DNA of 64,000 nt from Verrucomicrobiales bacterium (GTDB lineage Bacteria; Verrucomicrobiota; Verrucomicrobiia; Verrucomicrobiales; DEV007). Position 1 is the stretch's first letter; each line of letters starts with the position of its first letter. The position numbers and the translations under genes are program-made. Under the pieces are notes generated by a model, which ran no database searches, was not told the DNA's origin, and was given only the letters and a program-made list of their open reading frames with translations. Shown here one piece after another: positions 13,120-47,195 of the stretch. The DNA lies in assembly GCA_046581505.1 (NCBI GenBank), contig JAYGGE010000099.1, positions 11,663-75,662 of the forward strand. Reading direction: 5' to 3'.

Positions 13120-13155
13120 AGAGGCACGGCGGGAGTTGTTTTTCCGAGAATTCCG

Positions 13156-14313: not shown

Positions 14314-14330
14314 CCAGAGCATCCCCTGAA

Positions 14331-15425: not shown

Positions 15426-15469
15426 ACAACCAAATTACAGAGCGGCTGCACCAAGGTGCAACGTGTCCG

Positions 15470-17731: not shown

Positions 17732-17752
17732 CCCCCGATTTTTTGACAGGAT

Positions 17753-18673: not shown

Positions 18674-18692
18674 AACCTGTGGAGAATCGCAT

Positions 18693-19739: not shown

Positions 19740-19777
19740 CTAATGAGCTTTAATCAACGTAATCGCAGGTAGTTCAG

Positions 19778-21064: not shown

Positions 21065-21094
21065 ATCTTGAACTTAAACAATACGAACTGACTG

Positions 21095-26854: not shown

Positions 26855-27877
26855 GTGTCAGCGGGTTCGGATGATATCTTTACCGCCCTGAAGGGTGCGG
26901 CGATGGGAGCCGCAAATGTCATTCCCGGAGTTTCCGGGGGCACAATCGCGTTCATTACCGGGATATATGAGCGCCTGATCAACGCGATCAAGTCCTGTAA
27001 CATGACGGCCATTGGGTTGTTGCTTGGATTAAAGTTCAGGAAGTTTGCCGGATACACCGACCTGCGGTTTCTTTTTGCCATTGCGACGGGCGCCCTGCTG
27101 AGCATTGTCAGCCTGGCGAGGCTCCTTGAGTATCTCTTTGGCAATTACCCGATCCTCCTTTGGGCATTTTTCTTCGGCTTGATTGTTGCTTCAGTCTGGG
27201 GGGTTGGAAAAATGATCAGGGCCTGGAGCGTCGCCCCGGTGGGGGCAGTGCTTATCGGCATGGCAGCTGCAATTGGCGTGTTGCTCTTGCCTCATGCCGC
27301 AGGGAACACAAATTCCGTGTACCTGGTCATTTGCGGGATTGCGGCCATTTCCAGCATGATCATCCCGGGGGTTTCCGGGTCGTTTATCCTTCTCATCATG
27401 GGAAACTACATGCTGGTTCTTGGTGCCGTTGGCGATCTTGATCCCGGTATTCTCATGCCATTTGCGGCGGGATGCGTCATTGGCCTGATTGCCTTGTCAC
27501 ATCTGCTTTCATGGGTTTTTCGACGTTATCACGATATTGCCGTGGGTTTGATCACCGGCTTCATTATCGGTTCGCTGGTGTTGATATGGCCGTGGAAAGA
27601 AACCATTTATAAGCAGGACAGCAATGGTGCCTACATTGTGAGCAGCGAGGAGCTTGTGTTGCTCCCCCGTCCCGGGGAACTGCAATCGGTGAAGGACTCA
27701 CTAATCAATGGTGAACAACTCGTGAGTGCCGGTTACAAGAACTGGAGCCTTCCCGCCCTCGGCGAAAAGGAATCATGGCTTGCGATGTTGCTGGCGTTTA
27801 TCGGAGCCGGGGTGGTTTTCGGCATCGAGAGGATCGGTGTAAAACGGAGCAAGGATAATGATGAGGATACTGCCTAG
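26855..27877 (+). CDS. DUF368 family inner membrane protein
   Basis: Duplicated IPGVSGG motifs (ANVIPGVSGGTIAFITGIYERL and MIIPGVSGSFILLIMG) in a polytopic protein. The start is uncertain: GTG 26855 or TTG 26819. The track start 26672 abuts the divergent flavodoxin-like gene and is unlikely. Confidence 0.7.
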   Translation: MSAGSDDIFTALKGAAMGAANVIPGVSGGTIAFITGIYERLINAIKSCNMTAIGLLLGLKFRKFAGYTDLRFLFAIATGALLSIVSLARLLEYLFGNYPILLWAFFFGLIVASVWGVGKMIRAWSVAPVGAVLIGMAAAIGVLLLPHAAGNTNSVYLVICGIAAISSMIIPGVSGSFILLIMGNYMLVLGAVGDLDPGILMPFAAGCVIGLIALSHLLSWVFRRYHDIAVGLITGFIIGSLVLIWPWKETIYKQDSNGAYIVSSEELVLLPRPGELQSVKDSLINGEQLVSAGYKNWSLPALGEKESWLAMLLAFIGAGVVFGIERIGVKRSKDNDEDTA

Positions 27878-29546
27878 TATTGTTTTCACCTGGCTCACGG
27901 GCCTTGTGCCTCTGCAGGGGCAGGAACCGCTGGTCGTCGGCATGGAACTCACCTATCCGCCGTTTGAGTTTGTCAACGAGGACGGCAACCCGGACGGGGT
28001 CAGCGTGCGCATGGCCGAGGCACTGGCGGACTACCTTGATCGGTCCCTGAAAATCGAGAACATCAAGTTTGATACATTGATCACTGCCCTCAAGTCGGGC
28101 AGTATCGACTGTGTCATTTCCTCGATGACGGCCAATGATGAGCGGCGGCAATCGATTGATTTCTCGGATCCCTATGTCACGACAGGCCTGGCGATGCTGG
28201 TAGGCAAGGATTCCGAAATTGAAGGCCTTGAGGATCTAAAGAAACCGGGCAGGACAATCGTTGCCCGGCTTGGCACGACTGGAGAAAATTTTGCGCGGGA
28301 ACACCTGCCGCAAGCGACGGTTATTACCATGCAGGAAGATCCTGCATGTGCCCTTGAGGTTGCCCAGGGCAAGGCTGATGCCTGGATTTATGATCAGCTT
28401 TCCATCTTTCAGCATCACAAGAATCATGCCAGAACGACCCGGGCCCTGTTGAGGCCGCTCAGGGCGGAGCAGTGGGCGGTGGGGTTGCGCAAGCCCAAGG
28501 CCGGTGAGAACAATGAATTGCGTGCTTCGGTGAATGATTTCCTGAGGGAATTCCGTGCATCGGGGGAATTTGAGGCCCTTGCCGAGCGTTACCTGAAGGA
28601 AGAGAGACAACTCGTCAGGGAACTTGGGATCCCCTTTATTTTTGATTCGGTGGTTGCCGTTGCGGGTGACACGAGGGCGGAGAGTGAGAGTTCTCAAAAG
28701 ACAGAGAATGATTGGCTGTTCTTGCTGCTGGTCACCGCATTAATTGTGCTCACTCTCATTACCTTCTGGCGCTTGACCAGGGATGCCAAGACATCGGGTG
28801 GCGGATCCTGGGAGTTGCTTGGTTATGCGTTGCTTTGGCTGCTGGTGAGCGGGTTTTGTTATTTTGTTTTCGCCTCACTCAACGAGACCTACACGTGGAA
28901 CTGGGAAGGGATTTGGCGACGCAGGTGGCAGATCTTCGGTGGCTGGCTGAGGACCATATGGATATCTCTCGTCGCGCTGGTTTTGTGCAGCGGTGTCGGG
29001 ATTGGGCTGGTGGCCGGGTCACGTTCGCGGTTCAGGCCGTTGCGGTTTTTCTGCCGGGCCTATACCGAAATCGTGCGCGGCAGCCCTTTGCTGGTGGTGC
29101 TGCTGGTGGGTTATTACGTGATCGCCCAGGCTTTTCATGTCAATGACCGGGTGCTGGTCGGTGTCATCCTGCTGGCGCTGTTTGCGGGTGCCTACCTCGG
29201 GGAAATCCTGCGCGGGGGGATTGAGAGTGTTGGCAAGACACAGTTTGACTCCGCCCGGGCGGTTGGATTCTCGCGGGTGCAGGTGTTTCGTTATGTGATT
29301 TTCGCCCAGGCGATCCGCCGTGTGCTGCCGGCAGTTGCGGGGCTGTTCATTATCCTGGTGAAGGATTCCTCGCTGCTTTCACAAATTGCCGTTGAGGAGT
29401 TTACCAAGCGCAGCGAAAGCGCGCGCTCGGCGACTTACACCGGGCTTGAAGCCTATCTTCCATTGGCTGTCGGCTACCTGTTGATCACGATTCCGCTCGC
29501 CTACCTCGCGGCACGCCTGGAAAGGAGGTTTTCCTATGAGAGTTAG
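27858..29546 (+). CDS. Amino-acid ABC transporter, fused periplasmic substrate-binding domain and permease
   Basis: The N-terminal ~250 aa are SBP_bac_3-like (VVGMELTYPPFEF..., IDCVISSMTANDERRQSIDFSDPY). The C-terminal ~250 aa are a HisM/GlnP-type permease (YTEIVRGSPLLVVLLVGYY, EEFTKRSES). Confidence 0.8.
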   Translation: MMRILPSIVFTWLTGLVPLQGQEPLVVGMELTYPPFEFVNEDGNPDGVSVRMAEALADYLDRSLKIENIKFDTLITALKSGSIDCVISSMTANDERRQSIDFSDPYVTTGLAMLVGKDSEIEGLEDLKKPGRTIVARLGTTGENFAREHLPQATVITMQEDPACALEVAQGKADAWIYDQLSIFQHHKNHARTTRALLRPLRAEQWAVGLRKPKAGENNELRASVNDFLREFRASGEFEALAERYLKEERQLVRELGIPFIFDSVVAVAGDTRAESESSQKTENDWLFLLLVTALIVLTLITFWRLTRDAKTSGGGSWELLGYALLWLLVSGFCYFVFASLNETYTWNWEGIWRRRWQIFGGWLRTIWISLVALVLCSGVGIGLVAGSRSRFRPLRFFCRAYTEIVRGSPLLVVLLVGYYVIAQAFHVNDRVLVGVILLALFAGAYLGEILRGGIESVGKTQFDSARAVGFSRVQVFRYVIFAQAIRRVLPAVAGLFIILVKDSSLLSQIAVEEFTKRSESARSATYTGLEAYLPLAVGYLLITIPLAYLAARLERRFSYES

Positions 29547-30274: not shown

Positions 30275-33200
30275 CTACTGACTGATTTCAACCCGCAGCC
30301 GGATTTGGTGTATTGTCGCGCTGGGAAGGGGAGCTGGACACCTGAGAGTTATCCATTGCCGTCCATCCTCTGAGGGAGTCAGTGTGCCAAAGGGGATCGT
30401 GCTTGTAGTCCACGTTACGGAATCACTGGAGATTTCCCCGCTGATTTGCAGGTCATTGGCATTTGCCCGGGCAAGGAAACGAATTGCAAGATACTCATTG
30501 CCGTCGGCATTGACAATCAGGGCTATCATTTCAGGACGATCGTCCGATGTATTGGGATCGGTAGCGAATGCGTATTCCATTAAGTTTTCGATGGCATCGG
30601 AATCCGGGTCGGATCCCGGTGCGGAGATCGATTCAAAATCGGGAGATGCCGGGTCAAAGTTGTTCGTTATCCAGGAGGCATAGCCCGGGGTGCGGATCAT
30701 GCCTCCGGGACTTCCGTCAATTTGCTCGGAGCTCTGCCAGCTTTCGGGCAGCGAATGGTCGGGATTGGTTTCGGGTGCTATCAGGGTGAGTGTAAAGCCT
30801 TTACCCTTGGCAGTGGTTGGCCAGGGCAACTCATCAGAATATGTGAAGCTCTTGATTATCGTGCTGTTGGCGGCAAGCAGGGTAATGCTCTCGCCGTTGT
30901 TGCTGAGCTTGCTGTCATTCCCGAATTCACCGGCGATTTTCTCTTTGATGGCGTTCCCGTAACGGGCAGCCATGGCTTCCGTGTCCTCGACAATCAGCAA
31001 TTCCCCGCCTGGAGCGAGCGTATGCACAGGGCTGTCAAGATCAAAGGTGAAGTCGATGCCCTGTGAAAAACTGGTGCCGACAAGGTCAATGGTTGCGTCA
31101 CTGATATTCTTCAACTCAATGAATTCAAAGTCGGTGCGACCGCCGGCAACTGCCATCTCGGCTAATCCGGATGGCGGGCGGGGCCGATAGTTAAATTCAC
31201 TGACAACGAGATTGGAAGCCGATGCAAGCTGGCCAACAAGGAAGGTGGCCCCGGTGAGTGCCGACCACTCATTGCTCCCCGTTTTGATGGCCCGCGCCTT
31301 TATCAGGCTGCTTTGCTCCAGGGCGAATGCATCGGTATAGAGGATTGCACCCGGGGATGCCCCGCCACCCTCAATTGCGATGGAGGCGGTAAGTTTCGGC
31401 AGGCAAAGCAGGTCGCTGCTGGTGGGGGAGGAGTTGAGTGCTTGGATGGCGAGCATGTTATCGCCTTTCTTCAGTGAGTCCCTGAAGGCTGAAATGTCGA
31501 AATTCTGGGAGATCACTGCCTGGACGTCTGCGTGTATTGCCGTTGCTGCCGAGTTCCATGACACATCAGCGGGGGCATTGGAAGAGCTTGCCACACGGCT
31601 GCCGTTGAGGTAGGCGACGAAGGCATCATCATACTTCATTGACAGTGTAAGTGCATCGAACCCGGAGATATCCACATCCTCATTGATGGTGAACGGGACC
31701 CGTACAAAGACACTGGAAGTGACTGCAGACATTGCGGTGACATCAAGGTTGATGAACGGCTGATAATTGGTCCCGCTGGTCTCGTAACCGATACCGGTTT
31801 TCCCCTGTATCCACTGTTCGGCATTCGCCGGGGCGGCAAGATCAGTCCAGGTCGCTGCTAACCCGGCTCCGCCGTTGGCTTCCGAGGGGATAAGCGCCTC
31901 GGCGCTTACAACTTCGTCAACCAGGATGAGCGACTCGATTGTCGGCGGGAGGTAGGGATCACTGCCATCGGTTGTATAGTAGATATCTGCATCATCGGCA
32001 GTCATGCTGAGCGGGAACCCGGTAGCCACTGCACCGCCGTGCTGGTTGAAAATGGGTGCATTAGTGGCGGGATAGAGTCCACGGGAGCGGAATTGCTCAA
32101 GCACAGTGGCGGTCCGTCCCGGGATAAAGTTATTCCTCACCCAGAATACCTCGCTCAGCCAGGTGTCGTTGCGGGTGAATGCTGTCGACAGGGCAGTGCC
32201 CTCATCTCCCCAGCGGGCGGATTCACCGACCATGGGTGCGCGCAATTCTCCCCACATCGCATCCCAGCGGGAGCGGTTCCGCTCAACCGACATTATCCCG
32301 TCATTGAAAAAATGTTTATGCAACCGGTCGGCGAAGTGGAGTTGAAAGGTCGGGTACGAACGCAGTGCGGTATAGAATTCAACGGGAGATCCCGCGTCAT
32401 TGACAGCGGTAAGGTCAAAATCCGTCACTCTCTGGTCGGGCGGGTTTGCCGGGTTGAGGTTAAACATGAGGTGGATGCCCATTGCCATCTCGGCATCCCA
32501 TGTGAAGAAGCGGAAAGTTCCCTGCTTACCCCGGCTTCTGCGCCCGGCGTACCAGTTCTTGTTGCTGAATACGGTCACATCGGCTCCGGAACGCAGGATT
32601 GGCCCGCACCAGTCGTAATCGGCTGACCACATGCGCACGATGAGATGGTCGATATAGTCATCAAGGTCAATATAATCCTGAATAGCCTGGTATTGGGATG
32701 CGGAGGTGATGCCTTTGGAGGTGATTGCGCGTGCTTCTTCCCAGGCGGCGTTATTTCCATCGACCAGCGTGTAATCTTCACCGAAGAAGGTCGGGTGGTG
32801 CAGGACATCATAGTCTTCCTCGTCGCCCCCGAGATGGGATTCAAAAAAGGCGGCATTGGCGCGTTCGTGGAGGTCATAGACTCCCCAGTAACGGCCGTTG
32901 ATGTAGAGGTGGGTGTAGCGACCGCGTGGTGAGAGGATGCCCATTTCCACCTCGGTCTTGCGCAGGAACTGGTCGCGCATCAGTGTTCCGTGGGGCGGCA
33001 GGTCTTTTTGCTGGTCACGGCCGAAGGTGGCGGCAAGTGACCAGGAATCATGTCCGCCACCACGCAGAACCAACTGGTCAAAGGACTCAACAGGACTTCC
33101 GGCAAACAGGGGATATTCCAGGCGGCGATCTCCATATCCGCCGCGGAAATACAGGCGGAAGGGTTTTTTAGGGTGAGAGCGCGCGTTGCCGCCGTGGATC

Positions 33201-34747
33201 CGGATGCCGGCATCAACCTGGAACTCATCGGAAGGATCGAGCGGGTTGAAGAATTCCATTGAGACAGGGATTTCGGCATCGCGTCCGGATAGATTGTAGT
33301 TGGTGTGAGTTCCATTCGGCCCGAAGAAGGAGGCGTATTCGAGAACCAGGGAGATGACAGGGAGGTTCCCGGAGAGATCCCCCTCGATGGTTGCCGAGTA
33401 TGCCGGGTCATTGACCACATTGTCATCCATGTCAGCCTGATTCTTGATGTCCGAGGCGAACAGGTAGCTTTGTGTGTCAATATTGGTCGGTTTATAACCT
33501 GTCTTGTAGGCTATAGCGCGCAGGATGGTGGTTGAATTGACGGCAATGGGGTCGGTATAAAGGGTTCCTGTCGATGCATCCGGGGCGGAGCCGTCTGTTG
33601 TGTAGCGTATTGCAGCTCCTTCTGTTTCGGTGGTGATGGATACTGAGATCTCGGAGTTGTAGTAGCCTCTTTTTATTGAGAACTGCGTGTCGGAGACAAA
33701 GCCCTCGACACTTTCGCCGTTAAGCGCTCCGGGGGTGGGCAGGGCAAGATATCCTTGTGCGCCGGGTACTGCGGGATCGGCCTTGAATGCCAGTAACTCG
33801 GGAAGTATCAGAAAGTCGGAACTGTCGATACCCCAATTGAGCCCTTGGATGGCAAGGATGTTTTCACCGGCCACAAGGGAGGCAATTCCTGCCGAGGCAC
33901 TGAATTGTTCAGGGATTATCGCCTCGCTGTCGGCATGGAAATTGGCAGATTCAGAATTCCAGGCCGGGGTCAGTGGTCCACGTGAGGATGCAACCAGTTT
34001 GCCGTTGACCCATGCGATGAAGCCATCGTCAAAACGCATATTGAGTTGCAGATCAGCGATGGTTTCCGGATCGGTTATTTCAAAGGGGATTCTCAGGTAG
34101 AGTGTAGCGTTCAGGTTGCTCATTTGTGCCTGGACATTTCCGCTCTGGCTTATATACGGGCCATAACCCGCGTTCAGTTCATAGCCGAACCCGGTGGATC
34201 CCGATGTCCAGCCACTGTCATCAAAATCCGCAGTATTCCAGTCGCTTACGGGGCCGCTTGGAACCAGCCACTTCGCGGATGCCGGATCGGGAACAGCGAC
34301 CTCGGTTGTCGTGGTGATTGATGTCCCGTAGGAGACATCCTCAAATTGTTTCTGGTAATTAAAGTCCTTTGCAACAGTGATTCCATCCGGGGCTACCAAT
34401 GCAAGATATTCACCGTTTGAATTAAGTGAAAAGTTGGTATGCAGTTCTGCCGCCGGGTCATTGAGGTTTTTACCGGAAGCGAAGACAATAAGATAACCTG
34501 CCGCGGGAATGGAAACTTCGGGGAATATCCATTTGGTCAACTCTTGAGCATCGTCAGTAAGGCTCCAGCCGGAAACGTTGACCGGATCCGCTGACGGGTT
34601 GTGAATCTCGATCCAGTCGGAGCTGTCCCCGTCTCTATCGGTAATTCCAGAGCGATTTTCTGCGAGAAACTCAGAAATGGTTAACTGTGCCGTGGCGGAA
34701 AGCGAGAAAGTCAGTGACAGGCCAGTGAACAAAGAAAGCAGGCGCAT
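30275..34747 (-). CDS. Secreted multidomain protein: lamin-tail domains, CotH kinase-like domain, chitobiase/hexosaminidase C-terminal-like modules
   Basis: Signal peptide MRLLSLFTGLSLTFSLSATA. LTD-like segments are ISEFLAEN...DWIEIHNPSADPVNVSGWSLTDD (N-terminal) and VSEFNYRP...FEFIELKNISDATIDLVGTSF (C-terminal). The CotH-like core (about aa 460-890) includes LYINGRYWGVYDLHERANAAFFESHLGG. Fn3_assoc-like segments are IRYTTDGSAPD...LRAIAYK and IYYTTDGSDPY. Confidence 0.8.
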   Translation of the reverse strand: MRLLSLFTGLSLTFSLSATAQLTISEFLAENRSGITDRDGDSSDWIEIHNPSADPVNVSGWSLTDDAQELTKWIFPEVSIPAAGYLIVFASGKNLNDPAAELHTNFSLNSNGEYLALVAPDGITVAKDFNYQKQFEDVSYGTSITTTTEVAVPDPASAKWLVPSGPVSDWNTADFDDSGWTSGSTGFGYELNAGYGPYISQSGNVQAQMSNLNATLYLRIPFEITDPETIADLQLNMRFDDGFIAWVNGKLVASSRGPLTPAWNSESANFHADSEAIIPEQFSASAGIASLVAGENILAIQGLNWGIDSSDFLILPELLAFKADPAVPGAQGYLALPTPGALNGESVEGFVSDTQFSIKRGYYNSEISVSITTETEGAAIRYTTDGSAPDASTGTLYTDPIAVNSTTILRAIAYKTGYKPTNIDTQSYLFASDIKNQADMDDNVVNDPAYSATIEGDLSGNLPVISLVLEYASFFGPNGTHTNYNLSGRDAEIPVSMEFFNPLDPSDEFQVDAGIRIHGGNARSHPKKPFRLYFRGGYGDRRLEYPLFAGSPVESFDQLVLRGGGHDSWSLAATFGRDQQKDLPPHGTLMRDQFLRKTEVEMGILSPRGRYTHLYINGRYWGVYDLHERANAAFFESHLGGDEEDYDVLHHPTFFGEDYTLVDGNNAAWEEARAITSKGITSASQYQAIQDYIDLDDYIDHLIVRMWSADYDWCGPILRSGADVTVFSNKNWYAGRRSRGKQGTFRFFTWDAEMAMGIHLMFNLNPANPPDQRVTDFDLTAVNDAGSPVEFYTALRSYPTFQLHFADRLHKHFFNDGIMSVERNRSRWDAMWGELRAPMVGESARWGDEGTALSTAFTRNDTWLSEVFWVRNNFIPGRTATVLEQFRSRGLYPATNAPIFNQHGGAVATGFPLSMTADDADIYYTTDGSDPYLPPTIESLILVDEVVSAEALIPSEANGGAGLAATWTDLAAPANAEQWIQGKTGIGYETSGTNYQPFINLDVTAMSAVTSSVFVRVPFTINEDVDISGFDALTLSMKYDDAFVAYLNGSRVASSSNAPADVSWNSAATAIHADVQAVISQNFDISAFRDSLKKGDNMLAIQALNSSPTSSDLLCLPKLTASIAIEGGGASPGAILYTDAFALEQSSLIKARAIKTGSNEWSALTGATFLVGQLASASNLVVSEFNYRPRPPSGLAEMAVAGGRTDFEFIELKNISDATIDLVGTSFSQGIDFTFDLDSPVHTLAPGGELLIVEDTEAMAARYGNAIKEKIAGEFGNDSKLSNNGESITLLAANSTIIKSFTYSDELPWPTTAKGKGFTLTLIAPETNPDHSLPESWQSSEQIDGSPGGMIRTPGYASWITNNFDPASPDFESISAPGSDPDSDAIENLMEYAFATDPNTSDDRPEMIALIVNADGNEYLAIRFLARANANDLQISGEISSDSVTWTTSTIPFGTLTPSEDGRQWITLRCPAPLPSATIHQIRLRVEISQ

Positions 34748-39249: not shown

Positions 39250-39378
39250 GTTAATTGATGCTCGTGACCCATGTGCAATGGGTGCTAAACTAGTGATTCA
39301 GGGGTTGACTCTAATCGACCCGGGCAGGCTCATTATATTACAGCTTTCAGTTTGAACTCTATTCTTCCGTTTCTTGAC

Positions 39379-40146
39379 ATGGTTACAGGCAAGGTAATTC
39401 CCATTTTTTTGGCAGCGATACTTGGTAGCGCTATCTGTTCAGCAAATGCAAAATCCTTGGCTGAGTTCAAGGATGGCAAGAGGACATGGAGCTACGAGAA
39501 AGTCGCCGTTCATGGCTGGGTTGTTTTCATCGAGATCTCGATCGCGAGGGACGTTGCATTGAAGGAGAAGATTAAAGGGCAACTGACAGTCGGCATTGAG
39601 AACTTCCTCGATAAAGTGCCTGAAGAGGCACTGGATTTCCTCAGGAAAATTCCGATCTGGGTAAGCAATGAGCCGGGTTACCCGCTGCGGAAGAATGAAA
39701 GAGGGGTTATACCCTTTCATCGCAGCAAGGCCTGGCTGCGCGGGCACGGGCTAAACCCCCACATGGCACCCGGTGTTCATGTCATCAATCCCAAGGCTGC
39801 TTTTTTTGAGCATAGAATTTTAGAATGGGGGCCGATGACCTTGCTGCATGAACTGGCACACGCTTACCATAACGTGAAACTCAAGCTGAGTAATGAAGTG
39901 ATTAACAATGCGTATGCGAAGGCGATGGCCAAAGGGCTTTATCTCAGGGTTCCCGGCCGGAAGGACAAGTCGAAGAAAGTCAGGGCGTATGCAGCGACCA
40001 ATCGCGAGGAATATTTCGCTGAACTCACCGAGGCCTATTTTGGAAGAAATGACTGGTTCCCGCATAACCGTGCAGAACTCAAGGGATATGATCCGCAGGG
40101 TTACAGGATGATCGAGGAGTTGTGGGACGCGGCGGCCTTCCGCTGA
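39379..40146 (+). CDS. Secreted putative zinc metalloprotease (HExxH ... EYFAE), uncharacterised family
   Basis: Signal peptide MVTGKVIPIFLAAILGSAICSANA, LLHELAHAYH at nt 39847-39861, and NREEYFAELTEAYFGRNDWFP. Clear paralog of 48125..48865. Confidence 0.6.
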   Translation: MVTGKVIPIFLAAILGSAICSANAKSLAEFKDGKRTWSYEKVAVHGWVVFIEISIARDVALKEKIKGQLTVGIENFLDKVPEEALDFLRKIPIWVSNEPGYPLRKNERGVIPFHRSKAWLRGHGLNPHMAPGVHVINPKAAFFEHRILEWGPMTLLHELAHAYHNVKLKLSNEVINNAYAKAMAKGLYLRVPGRKDKSKKVRAYAATNREEYFAELTEAYFGRNDWFPHNRAELKGYDPQGYRMIEELWDAAAFR

Positions 40147-40328: not shown

Positions 40329-41330
40329 ATGAAACCGCTTTTTAAGGCCACGACGGGAAATATCCTGCTATCACTGGTTTGGATTCTTGTTTCTGCAAAT
40401 GCTCAGGAAGCAGACATTAAGGCTGTGTTTGCTTTTAGCCCGGAACCGATCAGCATCGATGGAAATGCGGACGATGATCCCTGGGCCAATGCAAACGAGT
40501 ATTCAGATTTTATTCCTTCCGTTGTGGCGCAGAATCCCGCCGGGCTTGAAGATTTGTCGGCGCGGTGGCGGGGTCTCTGGGATCAATCAAACCTCTACCT
40601 TTACATCGAAGTCACTGATGACGCGGTAATTGTTGGTGAGGATGGTGACTGGAATGATGACAGCATTGAGATTTATCTGGACATTGGCGCCCTCGGTAAG
40701 GGGAACAATCCACAGGTGATCGATTACGGTCCGGGATTCGGGCCTAATCAGTTTCCGGTTTTCCAACTGACTCTTCTTGCTGGCGAAGTCATACTGAGGA
40801 ACGGGGTCAACCACCTGGGCTGGGTTGAACGTAACGGGGACAGGCGTTCGGTTGACGGAGTTGCAGTGGCGGAGGAGAACAAATACCGTCTTGAGGTTGC
40901 CCTGCCCTGGTCATCTCTTGGCGGGACCACTCCGCAGGAAATCATCGAGCGTGGATTCTTTGGCTTCGGTTTGGCAGTCAATGATGACGACAACCTTGGT
41001 GGACGTGACACCCAGATCACGTGGTCTACCGGGAGCTCAAATCTCTGGCATGATGCCGGCAAATTTCCGAATGTTGCCCTCGCTCCTTCCAGGTCATTCC
41101 CGTTACGGATCACCCACGTGGAGATTGATCGAGGAACGGGTGAGGTGACGATGACCTGGAACAGTCGACCCGATCAGATTTTCATTGTTGAGGGTTCGTC
41201 CGATTTGGTTTTCTGGAGAGAACTCGATGATAATGTGGCAGCAGGTGAAGGTGGCATGACCAGTTATATAGATCTGGAAGGTGGCAAGGAGGATACGAGG
41301 TTTTATCGGGTTTTGATCTGGCAGGAGTAG
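40329..41330 (+). CDS. Secreted carbohydrate-binding family 9 (CBM9/DOMON-like) domain protein
   Basis: Signal peptide. ISIDGNADDDPWANANEYSDF, LYLYIEVTDDAV and DDSIEIYLD match the CBM9-like pattern by eye. The call is tentative. Confidence 0.5.
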   Translation: MKPLFKATTGNILLSLVWILVSANAQEADIKAVFAFSPEPISIDGNADDDPWANANEYSDFIPSVVAQNPAGLEDLSARWRGLWDQSNLYLYIEVTDDAVIVGEDGDWNDDSIEIYLDIGALGKGNNPQVIDYGPGFGPNQFPVFQLTLLAGEVILRNGVNHLGWVERNGDRRSVDGVAVAEENKYRLEVALPWSSLGGTTPQEIIERGFFGFGLAVNDDDNLGGRDTQITWSTGSSNLWHDAGKFPNVALAPSRSFPLRITHVEIDRGTGEVTMTWNSRPDQIFIVEGSSDLVFWRELDDNVAAGEGGMTSYIDLEGGKEDTRFYRVLIWQE

Positions 41331-41598: not shown

Positions 41599-42303
41599 AT
41601 GTATAAGGCTTACTTTAATAATGAACTGCAAGGTTGCCGCGATTCACTGCGAAGGGGGTTCACACTTCTTGAGTTGCTGGTGGTCCTGATGATCATTTCA
41701 ATGCTGGTGGTATTGTCGATACCGGCGATCAAGGGCTTAACATCCACAGCGGGAATGAGCACTGCGACCCGCCATATTTCCAGCATGATGGCCCTGGGGC
41801 GCAGCCGTGCCATTGCCAAGCGCACTATTGTCAGGTTTGGTATTGTTACCACCTGGGAGGATGACAGTCAGGCCGCCTATCGCAAATACGGCCTTTGGGA
41901 ATGGGATCGGGAGACAGAACAATTTGTAGCCTTTCAGGAATGGAAAACCCTGCCGCAGGGCTTGGTGTTCGAGACAGACCGGCGAGACTATATTCGTGCT
42001 GCCGATTATGCGCAGAAAGACGGCAGCAGTGTGCGTGGTGATTTCCTGCCAACAGGTGAAGCGGAGTCCTTTATCGAGAATGTCCGCTCAGAGCGTGTCA
42101 AGGTGGTGTTTTTCGAGTTTACACCCTCTGGGGGTGTTCGACTTCCGGGTGGCGAAGAGCGCAACGTATTAATTGTCGTCATCAACGGCTATATCGATTC
42201 TGACGGTGGCGGGAATATTGTGTATACTGACGAGGAAAAGAATAACTGGGCGCAGTTCAATATAGATACTCTAACCGGGCGCGTACGCATCTACAGGCCA
42301 TGA
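41599..42303 (+). CDS. Prepilin-type N-terminal domain protein, GspH/FimT-like (Verru_Chthon cassette protein D-like)
   Basis: ...SLRRG|FTLLELLVVLMIISMLVVLSIPA (Glu+5). 234 aa. The stop overlaps the next start (ATGA at 42300-42303). Confidence 0.7.
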   Translation: MYKAYFNNELQGCRDSLRRGFTLLELLVVLMIISMLVVLSIPAIKGLTSTAGMSTATRHISSMMALGRSRAIAKRTIVRFGIVTTWEDDSQAAYRKYGLWEWDRETEQFVAFQEWKTLPQGLVFETDRRDYIRAADYAQKDGSSVRGDFLPTGEAESFIENVRSERVKVVFFEFTPSGGVRLPGGEERNVLIVVINGYIDSDGGGNIVYTDEEKNNWAQFNIDTLTGRVRIYRP

Positions 42304-42824
42304 AGAATGCAGGTTTGTCAGTTTCCCGGGGATTCAGCCTCATTGAGATCGTCATTACTGTCGGGATTCTCGCGACAGTTGTGGTTTCACTGGTCGGAAT
42401 CCTTCCGGTAGGGATTAAATTTGCGGAAGATGCCGCTAATAGAACGGTCTTGGCTGTGATTCTTGAGGATGTGCACAACAGGCTTGAGGGGCAGTTATTG
42501 GAACCCGGTGAAGTTTCCTTGAGTCCATTTTTCTACGACCGTCAGGGGCTCCATATTGGTGAGGACTCAGATGAAGAGGTAAAGATGGGGCGTCTTTACA
42601 GGGCAGATGCCCGGCTGATTGACATTGCGGAAGGTTCACGCCTGAAACATACCAGCGGGCTGATGGCTGTCAGGATTGATGTGCGGTGGCCGGTTGACAC
42701 ATATTCCGGGGTGCCGCTACGGAAGGGAAAGCCGCAGGAGACAATCACTTTTTACGTAACGCCGCTTACCGGGTCCGATTGGCCGGCGATTGACACGAAT
42801 TACCGGCCAAAGATAGAGTTTTGA
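42300..42824 (+). CDS. Prepilin-type N-terminal domain protein, GspI-like (Verru_Chthon cassette protein B-like)
   Basis: MKNAGLSVSRG|FSLIEIVITVGILATVVVSLVGILPVG. 174 aa, paralog of 35..559. Confidence 0.7.
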   Translation: MKNAGLSVSRGFSLIEIVITVGILATVVVSLVGILPVGIKFAEDAANRTVLAVILEDVHNRLEGQLLEPGEVSLSPFFYDRQGLHIGEDSDEEVKMGRLYRADARLIDIAEGSRLKHTSGLMAVRIDVRWPVDTYSGVPLRKGKPQETITFYVTPLTGSDWPAIDTNYRPKIEF

Positions 42825-43819
42825 TGTCTGCTAAACGCAATATTTCAGCAGCGGCGTTCACGCTGCTTGAGTTGATGGTGGCGATGGTTGTCTTTGCCGC
42901 GGTACTGGTGATTTTCTCGACAATGACTTCAGGCATTATCAAGATGTGGACGGAGGGTGAAAGCAGGATTGAAACCTATCAGAACGCGCGCGGGGCACTG
43001 GAGATTATTACGCGGGAGCTTACTCCCGCAGTGGTTGATACCCGCATGCAGTTCGCGGTGATCCCGGCAGGTGAACTGACCCGCCGGGGGGCAAAACATC
43101 TGGTTGCAGGTTCTCCTGTTATCCTGTGGATGGCCCCCCTTGGTGAGCAGGGGAGCTTGCGCTGCGTGGGCTATTACCTGTTTCGTGACGAGGCAAGGGG
43201 ATTTTATCGTCTTAAGCGTATCTATATCAGGCCGCTGGAGGACAGGGCTTATTTCCCGGTGATGGTCAACGAGAGCAATCCGCGTGACCCGGCACTGCGC
43301 ATCAGTGCAACCAATGCGGACTGGTTTTTGCGTAACTGGGATGCAAGGGCTTTTGATGAGGAGGATCCTGCAAATGATGATGTCATTGTGAGCACAGTGG
43401 CGGATAACGTCATTGCTTTCTGGGTGCAGTGCCTTGATCTTGCCGGCAATCCCGTGCCGGCGCTGATGAAGGCCTCGAATCATGCCGGGAGTGCAATGAT
43501 CTATAACTCCGCTGCTTATTTCCAGATGGCAACCACCACTGCATTTGACAGCGGAAAAACCACTGAATTCCTTGCCGCCAGCGGACAGTCCATGAAGGCT
43601 AATCGTGTGCCGGCCGCAGTGGATGTCACCGTGGTAACCATCGATTCAACGGTGATTTCCAGGGGAATGGATATCCCGGCAGTGGAGAACATTTTCGCGG
43701 CAGACGGCTCGCTTGACGTTGAGGAATCTATTATGAGCTTTAATCGCGCGCTGCTTGACAGAAACATTAAAAACGGCAGGACGTTCACGACAAGGGTGAA
43801 TTTACTCAATGGTCAGTAA
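42824..43819 (+). CDS. Prepilin-type N-terminal domain protein, GspJ-like (Verru_Chthon cassette protein C-like)
   Basis: MSAKRNISAAA|FTLLELMVAMVVFAAVLVIF. ATG 42824 overlaps the upstream TGA (TGATG). Paralog of 625..1674. Confidence 0.7.
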   Translation: MSAKRNISAAAFTLLELMVAMVVFAAVLVIFSTMTSGIIKMWTEGESRIETYQNARGALEIITRELTPAVVDTRMQFAVIPAGELTRRGAKHLVAGSPVILWMAPLGEQGSLRCVGYYLFRDEARGFYRLKRIYIRPLEDRAYFPVMVNESNPRDPALRISATNADWFLRNWDARAFDEEDPANDDVIVSTVADNVIAFWVQCLDLAGNPVPALMKASNHAGSAMIYNSAAYFQMATTTAFDSGKTTEFLAASGQSMKANRVPAAVDVTVVTIDSTVISRGMDIPAVENIFAADGSLDVEESIMSFNRALLDRNIKNGRTFTTRVNLLNGQ

Positions 43820-46800
43820 CCTCATAGATAAGAGAAGACAGCTTGCCGGGGACGCATCCCGGCGCTGTGGTGTTGCGCTGGTAACAACCATGTTCCTGTT
43901 GGCTACCCTGACAATCCTTGTCATCGGGTTTATCAGTAGCATGTCCGTCGAGTCGGGGGCTTCCTCCTCCATTCAGGACGCACAGCGCACCAAGATGATC
44001 GCCCAGGGGGCGCTCAGTCATGCAATTGATTTGTTGCGCACCAATATACCTAGTCCTGCTCCAATTAATGAGGTTGAGGCACCGTTCAATCTTGTGCAAC
44101 CCGAAATCTCCGGGACTCAGTCCCGTCCGTTTTCAATTGAGGTTAATTCGGCTCCAGTGAGTGATGCGGAGCACTGGATTGTGAACCCTGGAAGATTGAC
44201 TGTTATTGGCAGTTCCGGGACCGTAAGCCATGTGCCCCTGCATACCGGGGAAGTTACTGCGGACCCAGCCGGCGAATTGACTCGGGATGCGCTATCCGTT
44301 GACCTGAACGAACCTTTGCCAGGGGAGCAATCACCTCCCATAGCGATGGATCCCAATGCCAGCGGCAGTTCATCTTCAAGGTCGCGTCCGGAAATGCGGG
44401 TGCGTTGGGTCCCGGTTCTTGAAGACCCGGGGCAATTGCCGGGAAAGGACAACAGCATGGTCGGCCGCTATGCGTTCTGGATGGATGATGAGTGTGCGAA
44501 ACTCAACTTCAATGTGGCTCTTGGTAAACCATCGCCCAGTGAGGATCGTGCTTTCCACCAGATGCTCAGGATGGGGATGATGACCCCGTTTTTCTTCCGG
44601 GGCGACGGGGCAACCACATTCAGTGATAGAAATCGGCGGCCCTGGTCACTGGGACATCCCCGATCCGTGAACCTGGACGTGCTTTTTGCTTCATCCTCTG
44701 AACTGGATCATAACCGCCTTCTGGCATACAGCTGGCTGCATGGCTTCAGCCGTTACATGGAGGCCATCCTTGATTTCGTGAATGTTGCCGATCCCGAGCT
44801 CTGGCTGAACAGGCAACGATTCAACCTGAGCTTCTACAGCCGGGCGCCTGAGTTCAATGTTTTCGGCAAATCCCGGCTGTTTACCACCAATTATCCCTTA
44901 TCACTTGAGGCAGGACCTCTCTATCAGCAGCCTTTCATGGTGAATCCTGCAGGTGACCGGGTTTTGCATTTGCATTCACTGATGGGCAGTTTCGGATTCA
45001 CCCGTCGAGTTCAGGATGATAGCGGTGGCAGTGTCCTTGCAGGCAACATGGTCAACCGGGCGCAACTCGAGATGCTGATGCGCTACATGAGCCGAAAGTG
45101 GCCCGGTTACGGGGCAAGCTTCATTGATAAATACGGTGAGCGCGAATGTTTCCAGATTGCCCTGAACATGCTGTTGATGGCGCGCATGGCCACCACCTCG
45201 ATGGGGGGTGAGCTGGAGGCGTTCAGTCGTACTTATTCCTTGAGAACAACGAGTGTTAATTATGCACCGCATCAGCAGGAAATGAGAGGCAATGCCCCGG
45301 AACGGATGTACTGGAGATTTAATACCGGGGGTGAGGAAGTGCTGATGCTGCCGCAGACCCCGGGACCGCACATCACGGAGGTGCGCCTGATCTTTGAGCC
45401 GGAACCGGCACCCACTGCCGGCGAGTATTACATTACTTATCGTTACGAGACCGAATACTACATGCCCTCATTCGGGCCGGTTGTCCGCGCAGAACATTTT
45501 CCAACCCGGGTTGATTATCTGCGGATTAAGACATCCGGTGCCGGAGCCAGGAATGAGCAGGAGTTTGGTGCGCGATCACCCGCGGACCAGCACGGATCAC
45601 GAAATTGGAACCACAGAAGGAGCCTGGGGCAGTTAATTGCGAGGCCAAGCGGGAATATTGGCCCGGCAAAGGCCACTTTACGTGGCGGGGAGGTGAACCA
45701 GCGCGTGATTGCCAGTTCCGTGCCGCAGGTTATTGGCAGGCAACGCCGCCTGATACCCGTCGAGGATGCCCAGAAGCTTGTCTATCGCCCGGCTTTGGGC
45801 TCCACGGTAAGGTTGAGTTACAAGATCAGGCTTGGCATGGGAGTTCAGCCTGACCTTGAACGGGCAGGGAGTGGTGCAGGTCGTCCGCGACAGATGATTC
45901 CTCTTGGCGAGACGGAATCGGAGACCTTGAGCGGAGATGCCATTATTGACTTGTTAAGTGGTGAACCTCTGGTGCTTGCCTGGGAAATTGCTGACCCGAG
46001 ATTAAGCGGGATAGCGAAGGAATGGGTGCTTGATACGGATGACAGTGATGGTGAGTTCGGCACCCCGGGAGAGAAGAATTCAATTGAACCGGAAGAAGAC
46101 TCAGAGGAGAAGAGCAAATATAAATATATCCAGCGCGGTCCGAAAGGAATGCGCCTGGCAAGGCACCCATTCAACCGTGCTGATGAATACAACTCGAAAA
46201 GCCGGACATCATCCAAGGGCTACTGGTCGGTAATTCACACCGGCATGCAATCAGGGGTTCCATGGAGAACCTGGGATCTGGGGGCTGCGGTAGAGCAGGG
46301 GAATCCCCCGGATTGGCTGCTGCTTGAGCTGCTGGGCGCGACTTATCCGATGCAGCACGCCAACTGGAGGATAGACAATACCCTGCCCGATAGTTTCTCG
46401 ACGGTTTCATACATGAACAGCACGGCGGGACAGATTAACATCAACTCGCGCATCTACCCGAGGAACCGGTGGTTTACCGCGCCGGAGCGACGCAGGCCCC
46501 TGGAGGGCGTGTTCAAGCATTTGCGATCGGATAGTGAAGTCGATAAATTCATTGACGGCATTATTGCGCATCAGGATGACAATGAGGTCTTTGAATTTAT
46601 CGGCGAGTTGGCGAATGTGGATGGATTCGATAACGGAGAGGATCGCTGGAAATCCGAGGCTTTTTTGCGTGATATGGCAGGATGCCTGACAACCCAGTCG
46701 AATACATTTGGCCTTTGGGGAGTTGCCCAAACGGTGAAAAAAGTTCGAGGAAACAGTGAATATGACCGGTTTGAAAGAGGTGACAAGGTTCTTGGGGAAA

Positions 46801-47195
46801 AGCGTTTTTTTGCAATTATTGAACGCTATGTATGGCCCGGCAAAGACGGGGTTCCCGGTAATGCCCACCTTAACGAATCCGGGCGATGGGATCGGCTGGC
46901 CGTGCCCGAGAGCGAGATTAATCTGGATGATTCCGATACTGACCGTTTATTCGGGCTGCCGGGATCGCCGCCCCTGCGACGGCAGGGAGCATTGCAGACA
47001 GGACGGCGGCTTGTGCTCAATATTGACGGAAGTTATCCGGAGTATGACGGGCCCCAGAAGGTTGGAATGGATGAGTTTAGCAAGCGTTCGCTTGGAGATA
47101 TCAGCTACCGGAGATCAAGCCTGGAGGATGCCTATAACCCGCCGCAACCCGCAATCAAGTATCGTGTTACCTATTTCAAATATCTGGACAAGTAG
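43809..47195 (+). CDS. Giant GspK/PilX-like pseudopilin-cassette protein (Verru_Chthon cassette protein A-like), 1128 aa
   Basis: The hydrophobic N-terminus GVALVTTMFLLATLTILVIGFIS lacks Glu+5, as in GspK. It has a YAFWMDDECAKLNFNVA motif (nt 44469-44519) and STAGQININS (nt 46413-46442). The start overlaps the upstream gene by 11 nt. Confidence 0.75.
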   Translation: MVSNLIDKRRQLAGDASRRCGVALVTTMFLLATLTILVIGFISSMSVESGASSSIQDAQRTKMIAQGALSHAIDLLRTNIPSPAPINEVEAPFNLVQPEISGTQSRPFSIEVNSAPVSDAEHWIVNPGRLTVIGSSGTVSHVPLHTGEVTADPAGELTRDALSVDLNEPLPGEQSPPIAMDPNASGSSSSRSRPEMRVRWVPVLEDPGQLPGKDNSMVGRYAFWMDDECAKLNFNVALGKPSPSEDRAFHQMLRMGMMTPFFFRGDGATTFSDRNRRPWSLGHPRSVNLDVLFASSSELDHNRLLAYSWLHGFSRYMEAILDFVNVADPELWLNRQRFNLSFYSRAPEFNVFGKSRLFTTNYPLSLEAGPLYQQPFMVNPAGDRVLHLHSLMGSFGFTRRVQDDSGGSVLAGNMVNRAQLEMLMRYMSRKWPGYGASFIDKYGERECFQIALNMLLMARMATTSMGGELEAFSRTYSLRTTSVNYAPHQQEMRGNAPERMYWRFNTGGEEVLMLPQTPGPHITEVRLIFEPEPAPTAGEYYITYRYETEYYMPSFGPVVRAEHFPTRVDYLRIKTSGAGARNEQEFGARSPADQHGSRNWNHRRSLGQLIARPSGNIGPAKATLRGGEVNQRVIASSVPQVIGRQRRLIPVEDAQKLVYRPALGSTVRLSYKIRLGMGVQPDLERAGSGAGRPRQMIPLGETESETLSGDAIIDLLSGEPLVLAWEIADPRLSGIAKEWVLDTDDSDGEFGTPGEKNSIEPEEDSEEKSKYKYIQRGPKGMRLARHPFNRADEYNSKSRTSSKGYWSVIHTGMQSGVPWRTWDLGAAVEQGNPPDWLLLELLGATYPMQHANWRIDNTLPDSFSTVSYMNSTAGQININSRIYPRNRWFTAPERRRPLEGVFKHLRSDSEVDKFIDGIIAHQDDNEVFEFIGELANVDGFDNGEDRWKSEAFLRDMAGCLTTQSNTFGLWGVAQTVKKVRGNSEYDRFERGDKVLGEKRFFAIIERYVWPGKDGVPGNAHLNESGRWDRLAVPESEINLDDSDTDRLFGLPGSPPLRRQGALQTGRRLVLNIDGSYPEYDGPQKVGMDEFSKRSLGDISYRRSSLEDAYNPPQPAIKYRVTYFKYLDK

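Follow-up and report, generated by a model that had tools for sequence, protein, structure and literature searches.

Protein A, an 1128-aa product of the 64,000-nucleotide stretch of DNA analyzed here (the window), probably caps the tip complex of a type IV filament, as a minor pilin of the GspK/PilK/PilX type with an integrated functional head. The protein is genuine and conserved, and it belongs to a large family that is already catalogued and is confined to Verrucomicrobiota.

Protein A matched the NCBIfam profile TIGR02600 ("Verru_Chthon cassette protein A"; profile length, 1296) in five stretches (E = 4e−36, 124 bits; cutoff, 332) and, judged by this sequence similarity, is a sub-threshold but clearly homologous relative. 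The TIGR02600 superfamily comprises ~5,400 clusters at 50% identity, and its full-length members, among those listed, span ~840 to 1950 aa. The large size of protein A, which the initial annotation had described as an expansion, is therefore normal in TIGR02600 and no peculiarity of this protein. Like the proteins of that family, protein A exceeds 1000 aa and lacks a Pfam domain, and its gene accompanies those of three prepilin-type proteins matching the cassette B, C, and D models. A literature search found no paper naming the TIGR02600 family. We found 114 full-length homologues of protein A; conservation was read from an alignment of 66 sequences with 29 to 85% identity to the query.

The query cassette consists of four pilin-type genes, of which gene A is the last, and a fifth gene, E:

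41599..42303, + strand: gene D, prepilin-type, 234 aa (leader ...RRG↓FTLLE), GspH/GspG-like (N_methyl, E = 5e−7; TIGR02596, E = 1.3e−13, 51.5 bits; cutoff, 70)
42300..42824, + strand: gene B, prepilin-type, 174 aa (SRG↓FSLIE), GspI-sized (TIGR02598, E = 9e−11, below cutoff)
42821..43819, + strand: gene C, prepilin-type, 332 aa (AA↓FTLLE), GspJ-like (TIGR02599, E = 2.8e−18, below cutoff)
43809..47195, + strand: gene A, 1128 aa (open reading frame and translation, ATG start)
47164..47895, + strand: gene E, ~243 aa, with a signal-peptide-like N terminus (a homologue adjoins gene A in relatives)

On sequence comparison, the D-B-C-A order matches that of GspH-I-J-K, and it is kept in 53 of 67 related loci. 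The start of gene A overlaps the end of gene C by 11 nt, and D, B, and C each carry a G↓F-[TS]-L-[IL]-E prepilin motif. The C-family profile aligned with E. coli GspJ over 112 columns, reaching past the helix (Prob 93%, E = 3.4e−7). The best E. coli matches of the D-family profile were GspG and GspH, at the N terminus only, and protein B gave weak matches to XpsI, PilV, and GspI, its hhalign assignment among GspG/H/I/J being ambiguous. The window holds two cassettes. In the canonical one at the window start, the genes are ordered [A]-B-C-D instead of D-B-C-A plus E, and B, C, and D score above their cutoffs, whereas all four proteins of the query cassette fall below the curated cutoffs of TIGR02600/02598/02599/02596. 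The proteins of the canonical cassette matched GspH (D, 3.4e−10), GspJ (C, 3.9e−6), and XpsI (B, 6e−5). A homologue of E directly follows A in 53 of 68 related loci. The putative GTG start of gene E overlaps the end of gene A, and its product has no Pfam match, no known domain, and no similarity to GspL, GspM, or GspC.

Such a cassette could instead encode a short periplasmic pseudopilus for type II secretion-like export, with the head of protein A acting as a substrate-selecting piston tip and not as a surface adhesin. [quoted passage not shown] A head of ~120 kDa is large for secretin passage and may be too large for it, a point against a tip pilin. Several exported polysaccharide-related proteins are encoded near the cassette, namely two metallopeptidase-like proteins and the following:

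40329-41330: CBM9 protein, exported, polysaccharide-related
48927-50210: glucuronyl-esterase-like protein, exported, polysaccharide-related

However, the adjacency of these flanking genes to the cassette is not conserved in relatives, the similarity of the cassette proteins extends to minor pilins of type IV pilus and Com systems (PilX_N, ComGE/F/G, PilV), and the window contains no gspC/D/E/F/L/M. A pseudopilus of this kind seems distinctly unlikely. The 64-kb window also has no gene for an ATPase, platform, secretin, or prepilin peptidase, which counts against the tip-pilin reading.

The relationship of protein A to GspK is firm, as far as profile searches can tell, for the N terminus alone (leader and long helix), and the gene order supports it:

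43809..44045, + strand: aa 1-79, GspK-type class III leader (…RRCG↓VALV, no Glu+5) and long helix at aa 22-79 (NF037980, hhalign, leader columns, AlphaFold2 helix H22-79)

The NF037980 model (T2SS_GspK) matched aa 21-79 (E = 6e−6, 25.9 bits against a cutoff of 130), and hhalign aligned aa 16-83 to GspK 2-69 (Prob 97%, E = 3.5e−11), with Prob values of 96.5 to 97% and E values of 9e−10 to 3.5e−11 in comparisons of the A family with the GspK profile. The N-terminal domain was matched by the GspK HMM 213 times among 248 family proteins; among distant family members, PilX_N was matched in 7 of 40 and GspK in 13 of 40. The family leader reads R-x-G↓[VA]-A-L-[VI], the commonest residues at +5 being M, L, T, I, and V, with Glu not among these, and the leader of the GspK alignment, QRG↓VAL[LI], likewise lacks Glu+5. 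The GspK-like N-terminal helix described in the initial annotation is thereby supported.

That annotation had also put protein A at ~3.5-fold the length of a canonical GspK, a ratio that is correct, given 327 aa for E. coli K-12 GspK and 286 to 393 aa for the full-length homologues in alignment A2. Two motifs, YAFWMDDECAKLNFNVA (motif 1, aa 221-237) and STAGQININS (motif 2, aa 871-880), and an acidic stretch (aa 742-770) were likewise found in the translation where they had been described. The proposed insertion of ~640 aa between the motifs holds as a distance, since 644 aa separate the first N-x-N from the second, versus 112 aa in E. coli GspK, but the extra length is spread over several places and does not form a single 640-aa block: the first N-x-N lies 233 aa from the N terminus (versus 105 aa), and the second 249 aa from the C terminus (versus 108 aa). 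The two motifs are not chance strings, as they are among the few invariant positions in the 66 homologues. F223, W224, D226, D227, E228, G239, and K240 are invariant around motif 1, where conservation of N233 and N235 reaches at least 90%. T872, G874, N877, and N879 in motif 2 and F967, G971, Q974, and Y1118 further on are invariant too. Past the helix, the protein divides as follows:

44085..44528, + strand: aa 93-240, first beta-strand region, ending in motif 1 (FW-DDE-x2-K-x-N-x-N-x-A-x-GK, aa 223-240; model strands at aa 93-227, invariant residues)
44529..45215, + strand: aa 241-469, conserved mixed alpha/beta region (superfamily HMM positions 240-430)
45216..46205, + strand: aa 470-799, beta-rich domain (aa ~500-745) and acidic loop region, the most variable part (lowest column identity, most insertions)
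46206..46688, + strand: aa 800-960, conserved helical region with motif 2 (T-x-G-x2-N-x-N, aa 872-879), then a helix-hairpin-helix of the ComEA/GspK type (aa ~908-940; invariant residues, HHH_3 in relatives, hhalign)
46689..47195, + strand: aa 961-1128, conserved beta-hairpin (TTxSNTF…, aa 966-1008), loops, and last strand (PPQPxIKYRVxYFKYL, aa 1116-1125; model strands E966-977, E993-1008, E1116-1125)

For this globular part, the link to GspK suggested by the profile comparisons is weak but consistent. Motif 1 had been likened to the T2SSK signature, and the D-x5-N-x-N spacing of D227/N233/N235 is identical to that of the near-invariant GspK residues D99/N105/N107, with which they align when the middle of protein A is spliced out. 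The stretch LGxPxSVNLDVLF (aa 281-293) is likely the helix-hairpin-helix partner of motif 1; in one relative (P0316), sub-threshold T2SSK and HHH_3 matches extend over the region of motif 1 and the residues that follow. On aa 866-1006, with motif 2, the next helices, and the SNTF hairpin, hhalign gave an alignment to GspK 206-310 (P = 0.0012, but 19% probability), with the conserved hairpin falling on the S..F hairpin of GspK, and three relatives (P0307, P0320, and P0326) have sub-threshold HHH_3 matches at the place equivalent to the motif-2 region. A spliced core without the helix scored 27.3 against GspK (P = 0.0033), compared to 12.4 to 18.7 for 25 control splices. These alignments point, if weakly, to both motifs belonging to a GspK core. 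However, hhalign placed the C-terminal helices on GspK 119-195 in one comparison and on 206-310 in another, so that any residue-level correspondence is tentative. Past the helix, no single match of the GspK HMM among family members was significant (best i-E-value, 0.058), and the Pfam search found no T2SSK domain on protein A, SfsA_N being its sole match at E up to 0.1. The initial annotation had recognized no motif between the two, and hhalign found no GspK counterpart for aa 240-870 (P = 0.45).

Alternatively, protein A could be no filament subunit at all. It would then be a large protein, exported or anchored in the membrane, such as an enzyme, a surface adhesin, or a periplasmic scaffold, for which the pilin-like N terminus is no more than a signal-anchor. 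The GspK motifs would in that case be generic ComEA-type N-x-N and helix-hairpin-helix elements, pointing to nucleic acid or glycan binding and not to a pseudopilin fold. This would fit the end of significant GspK similarity at ~aa 83, the absence of a pilin match in Foldseek and of assembly machinery nearby, and the weak matches in relatives, which were to HHH_3 in 8 of 40, to a ComEA HhH repeat in 2 of 40, and to T2SSK in just 1 of 40. We nevertheless regard it as rather unlikely: the leader resembles that of GspK in particular (G↓VAL, no Glu+5) and is more than hydrophobic; gene A shares a conserved operon, in which stops and starts overlap, with three bona fide prepilin-type genes arranged as H-I-J; HHH_3 elements belong to the GspK alpha-domain and are annotated by Pfam in several bona fide GspK proteins; and the motif spacing and the S..F hairpin are colinear with GspK.

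The AlphaFold2 model of protein A (pLDDT 87.9, pTM 0.88) shows a long helix, then a sheet, and the conserved last strand; as modeled, the protein is one compact body, to which the insert is not loosely appended. Structure searches did not recover the GspK fold for the globular part. Foldseek with the full model gave no significant match to GspK, PilY1, any pilin, or other fold, the best GspK-type match being an XcpX-containing model (E = 0.21), and aa 800-1128 matched 3ci0_K with an E value of 3.9 and a TM score of 0.18. The initial annotation had asked whether the insert is the part that varies between cassettes. Variation in sequence or length across the family is found only at ~aa 470-800; aa 240-470 are conserved, as is the part from ~aa 690 (by sequence, from 800) to 870. 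The length-variable stretch (~aa 470-690) measures ~150 to >600 aa across the superfamily, and aa 470-799 have no fold match in PDB or BFVD. Within the acidic patch, the D-rich half (aa 742-750) is not conserved, and the GTPG..N..EP.E.S.EKSKFRY segment after it is. The central beta-rich part of the head (~aa 470-800), which differs between cassettes, is the best candidate for a cassette-specific binding surface that may serve adhesion or the capture of a substrate or ligand.

From the size of the protein, it had been proposed that a GspK/PilX anchor may be fused to a tip adhesin of the PilY1/PilC type. Protein A is indeed close to PilY1 and MshQ in length (~1200 aa; PMC13533445), is encoded directly after I/J-like genes, in the place of pilY1 or the K gene, and has a conserved C-terminal strand as PilY1/PilC/MshQ do. 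The similarity is nevertheless one of size alone, with no homology in sequence or fold: there is no PilY1/PilC family among its Pfam matches and no PilY1/PilC structure among the 50 best Foldseek matches listed for the model, and a PDB sequence-profile search returned nothing. Moreover, its beta-rich region spans only ~245 aa, and the PilY1 propeller is considerably larger. PilY1, PilC, and MshQ are exported via an ordinary signal peptide, not a pilin-type helix, and they donate a strand in trans to a separate PilK. We consider such a fusion highly improbable.

As a tip-cap minor pilin, protein A resembles GspK/XcpX (PDB 3CI0; Pfam PF21687 and PF03934) in its leader and helix without Glu+5, its last place in an H-I-J-K-like order, its D-x5-N-x-N and N-x-N motifs, its helix-hairpin-helix elements, its C-terminal S..F hairpin, and its final strand. 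It differs in being 3.5 times longer, with ~800 residues of unrecognized fold that have no GspK counterpart, and in having no T2SSK Pfam match, no Foldseek match, and no T2SS machinery alongside. On our best reading, it would be analogous to ComZ and CpaL. Like Thermus ComZ, Caulobacter CpaL/TadG (~600 aa), and ETEC CofB, it appears to join a pilin-like N-terminal domain to a large non-pilin module within a single polypeptide. In ComZ, the GspK-like pilin fold carries a beta-solenoid insertion of ~380 aa (PMC6561018). In CpaL, a pilin-like N-domain is followed by a middle of ~470 aa that is dispensable and by a required strand at the extreme C terminus, which returns to complete the pilin sheet (PMC13533445). 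The tip location of such pilins was inferred from the bulk of their modules (PMC6561018; PMC13533445). Unlike in these proteins, whose modules share no detected sequence or fold similarity with it, the head of protein A is ~2 times larger and is predicted to form one compact body in which the GspK-like elements are embedded.

We propose that a prepilin peptidase, whose gene would lie elsewhere in the genome, would cleave the prepilin-type leader of protein A and that the long N-terminal helix would hold the protein in the inner membrane. There, protein A may nucleate the tip complex together with the GspI-like B and the GspJ-like C, and the GspH-like D would join this complex to the major pilin. 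The globular part may keep the GspK ground plan, from a small sheet through two units of N-x-N plus helix-hairpin-helix and a beta-hairpin to the last strand, and the ~800 extra residues built into this plan would form one rigid head atop the fiber. The last strand would close the fold in cis; GspK, too, completes its sheet in cis with a final strand of its own (PMC13533445). The D/N motifs are putative calcium-binding sites. Several genomes carry two to four loci of the subfamily; given several cassettes per genome and no assembly machinery beside them in this window, the cassettes are probably alternative tips for a shared machine.

Protein A, the GspK-like protein of the finding, is a real, conserved protein. 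It is encoded by an ATG-initiated open reading frame of 1128 aa at 43809-47195 on the + strand, and a collection of 5.8 billion proteins yielded 114 homologues (27-96% identity, about 98% query coverage), nearly all of them 1000-1250 aa long and from Verrucomicrobiota. The three sequence strings quoted in the initial annotation were located exactly, at aa 221-237, 871-880 and 742-770. Both motifs of A, a D/N motif at about aa 223-240 (motif 1) and an N-x-N motif at aa 872-879 (motif 2), belong to the few invariant positions in an alignment of 66 homologues: F223, W224, D226, D227, E228, T872, G874, N877 and N879 are invariant, and N233 and N235 are at least 90% conserved. Within the acidic patch, the Asp-rich first half varies and the subsequent GTPG..N..EP.E.S.EKSKFRY is conserved. 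A conserved Ca2+ loop at aa 742-750 of this patch was rejected, because its Asp residues are not conserved.

A has two matches in NCBIfam, the GspK model NF037980 and TIGR02600, "Verru_Chthon cassette protein A" (profile length 1296; E = 4.2e-36). The TIGR02600 score of 124.3 bits lies below the curated cutoff of 332.3 bits. All 40 of the more distant family members that we compared also match TIGR02600 (best E = 6e-63). Judged by profile similarity, A is homologous to TIGR02600 but outside its curated subfamily, as are these 40 relatives. Like TIGR02600 proteins, A exceeds 1000 aa and shares its cassette with prepilin-type proteins D, B and C, whose genes here lie immediately upstream. No Pfam domain was found in A; the sole Pfam match at E up to 0.1, SfsA_N (E = 0.023), was dismissed as noise.

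The roughly 3.5-fold length ratio of A to GspK is correct (1128 aa versus 327 aa in E. coli K-12), and aligned full-length GspK homologues span 286-393 aa. The description of A as expanded therefore holds in comparison with GspK but not with the other members of its own family. An exhaustive HMMER search, using the profile of the 66-sequence alignment, retrieved 5,419 clusters at 50% identity with E <= 1e-3, 894 of them with E <= 1e-30, and the full-length proteins among the best 150 matches measure about 840-1950 aa. No GspK-sized bridge forms occur among these best 150, the shortest full-length protein listed being about 840 aa. Large size is therefore a hallmark of a catalogued, uncharacterised family and not peculiar to A. 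A literature search for "Verru_Chthon cassette" and for the TIGR accession numbers found no paper mentioning either; the family is already named in NCBIfam/TIGRFAMs yet functionally blank. In a genome scan, the A subfamily was confined to Verrucomicrobiota (Verrucomicrobiales, Chthoniobacterales, Methylacidiphilales, Terrimicrobiaceae and Akkermansiaceae), save for a few matches in bins labelled otherwise, and some genomes carry 2-4 loci.

The window holds the cassette of A and, at its start, parts of a second, canonical cassette.

Cassette genes in the window, other than A
35-559, + strand: B of the second cassette, above the curated NCBIfam cutoff
625-1674, + strand: C of the second cassette, above the curated NCBIfam cutoff
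1678-2325, + strand: D of the second cassette, above the curated NCBIfam cutoff
41599-42303, + strand: D, with a prepilin-type leader; matches cassette model D (TIGR02596) below cutoff
42300-42824, + strand: B, with a prepilin-type leader; matches cassette model B (TIGR02598) below cutoff
42821-43819, + strand: C, with a prepilin-type leader; matches cassette model C (TIGR02599) below cutoff
about 47164-47895, + strand: E, about 243 aa, with a signal-peptide-like N-terminus; directly 3' of A and probably overlapping it

The order D-B-C is found upstream of A in 53 of 67 related loci, and a homologue of E follows A in 53 of 68. Judged by sequence, the order D-B-C-A appears to mirror GspH-I-J-K. 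A profile of the C proteins of the A subfamily matches E. coli GspJ (93% probability, 112 columns), and in the second cassette the canonical D matches GspH (3.4e-10) and ComGD, the canonical C matches GspJ (3.9e-6), and the canonical B matches XpsI (6e-5). The A gene of the second cassette presumably lies upstream of the window, and the canonical order would therefore be [A]-B-C-D, in contrast to D-B-C-A(-E) in the cassette of the finding. E has no Pfam domain that we could find, and hhalign detected no similarity of E to GspL, GspM or GspC. Curated NCBIfam cassette names stop at A to D, and the conserved E falls outside them. The 64-kb window contains no gene for a filament ATPase, platform protein, secretin or prepilin peptidase, and none of gspC/D/E/F/L/M/O.

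The likeness to GspK is clearest at the N-terminus, where the claim of a GspK-like anchor was borne out. NF037980 matches A at aa 21-79 only (E = 6e-6). In profile-profile comparison of the 66-sequence alignment with an alignment of 41 GspK sequences (hhalign), aa 16-83 fall on GspK 2-69 with 96.5-97% probability (E = 9e-10 to 3.5e-11). The leader of the A family, R-x-G|[VA]-A-L-[VI], has M, L, T, I and V as its commonest +5 residues and Glu is not among them, unlike D, B and C, which carry Glu at +5. The GspK leader, QRG|VAL[LI], likewise lacks Glu at +5, and its column statistics across the 41 GspK sequences are the same as those of the A family.

Beyond this helix, the GspK signal is weak. 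The whole-protein GspK score of A is under the NF037980 cutoff (25.9 versus 130 bits), and neither Pfam T2SSK_1st (PF21687) nor T2SSK (PF03934) matches A; PF03934 is sub-threshold in one of 40 relatives (E = 0.023). With hhalign, a segment that comprises motif 2, helices and the "TTQSNTF" hairpin (aa 866-1006) falls on GspK 206-310 (P = 0.0012, 19% probability), motif 1 aligns to GspK motif 1 (P = 0.05-0.08), and aa 240-870 have no counterpart in GspK (P = 0.45). When the GspK HMM was run against 248 family members, the N-terminal helix alone was significant, and the secondary matches, all sub-significant (i-E at least 0.058), gathered at the two motif regions.

A core spliced from the 66-sequence alignment (aa 16-84, 195-240, 866-1010 and 1105-1128) was compared with the GspK profile, alongside 25 control splices drawn from aa 241-860. 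With the helix included, the local score rose from 80 to 94; without it, the spliced core scored 27.3 (P = 0.0033) versus 12.4-18.7 for the controls. In this alignment, D227, N233 and N235 fall on the near-invariant D99, N105 and N107 of GspK, with identical D-x5-N-x-N spacing, and aa 890-941 coincide with the first of the helix-hairpin-helix units in GspK; other registers are possible. Since "N-x-N + HhH" units recur within GspK, the C-terminal helices have no unambiguous register. Pfam matches in 40 distant members (HHH_3 in 8, PilX_N in 7 and T2SSK in 1) offer weak independent support for the GspK likeness. HHH_3 lies just after motif 2 in the relatives P0307, P0320 and P0326, and HHH_3 and T2SSK cover the motif-1 region of P0316, all below Pfam thresholds; HHH_3 is annotated also in several genuine GspK proteins. 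The two motifs are probably GspK-like, given the shared spacing and a spliced core that scores above its controls.

AlphaFold2 with the 66-sequence alignment produced a compact, confident model of A (pLDDT 87.9, pTM 0.88).

Elements of the AlphaFold2 model of A
aa 22-79: helix
aa 93-227: strands, ending in motif 1
aa 247-480: mixed alpha/beta region
aa 500-745: beta-rich region, followed by ordered loops that include the acidic stretch
aa 800-960: helices, holding motif 2
aa 966-977 and 993-1008: long hairpin, followed by loops
aa 1116-1125: final strand, with Y1118 invariant in the 66-sequence alignment

The initial annotation had proposed structure prediction and Foldseek searches of aa 240-870 and 880-1128. 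Foldseek did not recover GspK for either the full model or aa 800-1128. Against the PDB, the full model had no match at E <= 1e-3, and its best GspK-type match was chain 9a1f_T of an XcpX-containing XcpGHIJK model (E = 0.21, TM 0.20). The top matches of the full model, FaeG and leukocidins, were set aside as noise (rmsd above 20 Å). We modelled aa 800-1128 separately (pLDDT 81) to help Foldseek find the C-terminal half of GspK; nothing significant was found, and 3ci0_K ranked 50th (E = 3.9, TM 0.18). The failure of Foldseek to recover the three-dimensional fold of GspK for A is to be read with the fact that sequential alignment handles discontinuous domains badly. Foldseek against BFVD returned nothing significant, and a PDB sequence-profile search with the 66-sequence alignment gave 0 matches at E up to 10. 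For aa 240-870, Foldseek found no known fold match in the PDB or BFVD.

These searches also bear on the proposal that A joins a K/PilX anchor to a PilY1-like adhesin. The likeness to PilY1 was not borne out: neither Pfam (E up to 0.1) nor the PDB sequence-profile search found a PilY1/PilC C-terminal beta-propeller in A, and no PilY1/PilC structure is among the Foldseek matches listed for the model. With support from neither sequence nor fold, the PilY1 hypothesis was rejected. Taken as a whole, the observation behind the initial annotation is confirmed, and its interpretation is supported in part.

The suggestion that the insert is the variable part of the protein holds for its middle. In the close family, conservation is lowest and indels mostly occur at about aa 560-800. 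Across the superfamily, the conserved blocks are roughly aa 14-243, 278-470 (weaker) and 683-1023 of A, and the stretch corresponding to about aa 470-690 is from about 150 to over 600 aa long in other members. Low conservation, indels and length variation thus mark about aa 470-800, but the flanks, aa 240-470 and about 690-870, are conserved family-wide; they are features of the family and not cassette-specific cargo.

Type IV filaments include pili, secretion pseudopili and competence pili. Minor pilins, joined in a small complex, both initiate and cap them, and the cargo of the cap decides the function of the fibre. Known caps are either small, as is GspK, in which an alpha-domain is inserted between the third and fourth strands, or recruit a separate large adhesin (PilY1/PilC) via a donated beta-strand; ComZ and CpaL are intermediate caps with an inserted module. 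The Ca2+ ligands of GspK are presumably residues of its D/N motifs. Two canonical Ca2+ sites of GspK have been reported at conserved D/N motifs of its alpha-domain (PMC6211770). In ComZ, a solenoid of about 380 aa interrupts a GspK-like fold ahead of its last strand (PMC6561018). The pilin sheet of GspK and of the roughly 600-aa CpaL is completed by the protein's own C-terminal strand, and PilY1, PilC and MshQ give theirs in trans (PMC13533445). The conserved, predicted C-terminal strand of A is consistent with closure of the sheet in cis. Like ComZ and CpaL/TadG, which form a functional class and not a sequence family, A combines a GspK-type N-terminus and a large non-pilin module in one chain, and we regard it as a variant of the tip minor pilins bearing integrated modules.

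In the best-supported reading, A would cap a minor-pilin tip complex as its K-type subunit. About 800 additional residues would interrupt and enclose the GspK ground plan and make up a single rigid head, whose central beta-rich part would be the cassette-specific surface. We further infer, provisionally, that a prepilin peptidase processes A, that A acts together with B, C and D and sits at the tip, and that its D/N motifs bind cations; the role proposed for the head is likewise provisional. With rather more doubt than belief, we conjecture that Verrucomicrobiota possess a very large family (about 5,400 clusters at 50% identity) of "tip cartridges", each with five genes for pilins resembling H, I and J, for a giant K-like cap and for the secreted partner E. 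A single polypeptide of novel fold would serve both as K subunit and as tip adhesin or effector, and its last strand would close its own pilin sheet in cis. Each genome would hold several cartridges that can be exchanged on a common type IV filament machine, and the exchange would change what the fibre binds. If so, no cis-type tip pilin larger than the A family would be known, and the family would lend itself well to testing the beta-strand-addition licensing model of fibre initiation. It would push the series of caps to an extreme, with more than 1000 aa and GspK-like elements scattered in a compact head of unknown fold. The family comprises thousands of variants, with several copies in a genome, and belongs to a phylum in which surface biology has hardly been studied. 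It would allow in-cis strand closure to be tested directly as a model and might yield new binding domains.

The canonical cassette lies directly next to the first genes of the cell-division/cell-wall (dcw) cluster (3286-22462, + strand: rsmH, PBP, murE, murF, mraY, murD, a LysM protein, ftsW, murG, and so on). In the relative P0014 (51% identity; L003/L004 1-5600), D-B-C-A-E directly follow murD, a LysM gene, ftsW and a thioredoxin gene, and the cassettes may be recurrently linked to this cluster. Within the cluster, a 771-aa ORF (15416-17731, + strand) matches MurC at aa 20-459 and MurB at aa 473-767, an apparent MurC-MurB fusion. In Verrucomicrobium sp. BvORR106 (BATR01000112.1; L002/L016), the A homologue P0027 (48% identity) has no clear upstream D-B-C in the draft assembly, and a 2270-aa PATR (autotransporter-repeat) protein follows it in place of E; the cassette here may be orphaned or rearranged, unless the arrangement is an artefact of the draft assembly.

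The cassette of the finding is flanked by two ORFs of about 250-260 aa at 39352-40146 (+ strand) and 48125-48865 (- strand), which may be paralogues because both show weak, sub-threshold matches to the anthrax lethal factor (ATLF)/M90-type metallopeptidase models. Nearby are a CBM9-like protein (40329-41330) and a glucuronyl-esterase-like protein (48927-50210, - strand). None of these metallopeptidase-like, CBM9-like and glucuronyl-esterase-like neighbours is conserved beside the cassette in the relatives inspected. Elsewhere in the window, a 1490-aa protein (30275-34747, - strand) without an NCBIfam match combines Lamin-tail (LTD), CotH kinase-like, Fn3-associated and chitobiase C-terminal domains, and a single 562-aa ORF (27858-29546, + strand) joins SBP_bac_3 (periplasmic solute-binding) and BPD_transp_1 (ABC permease).
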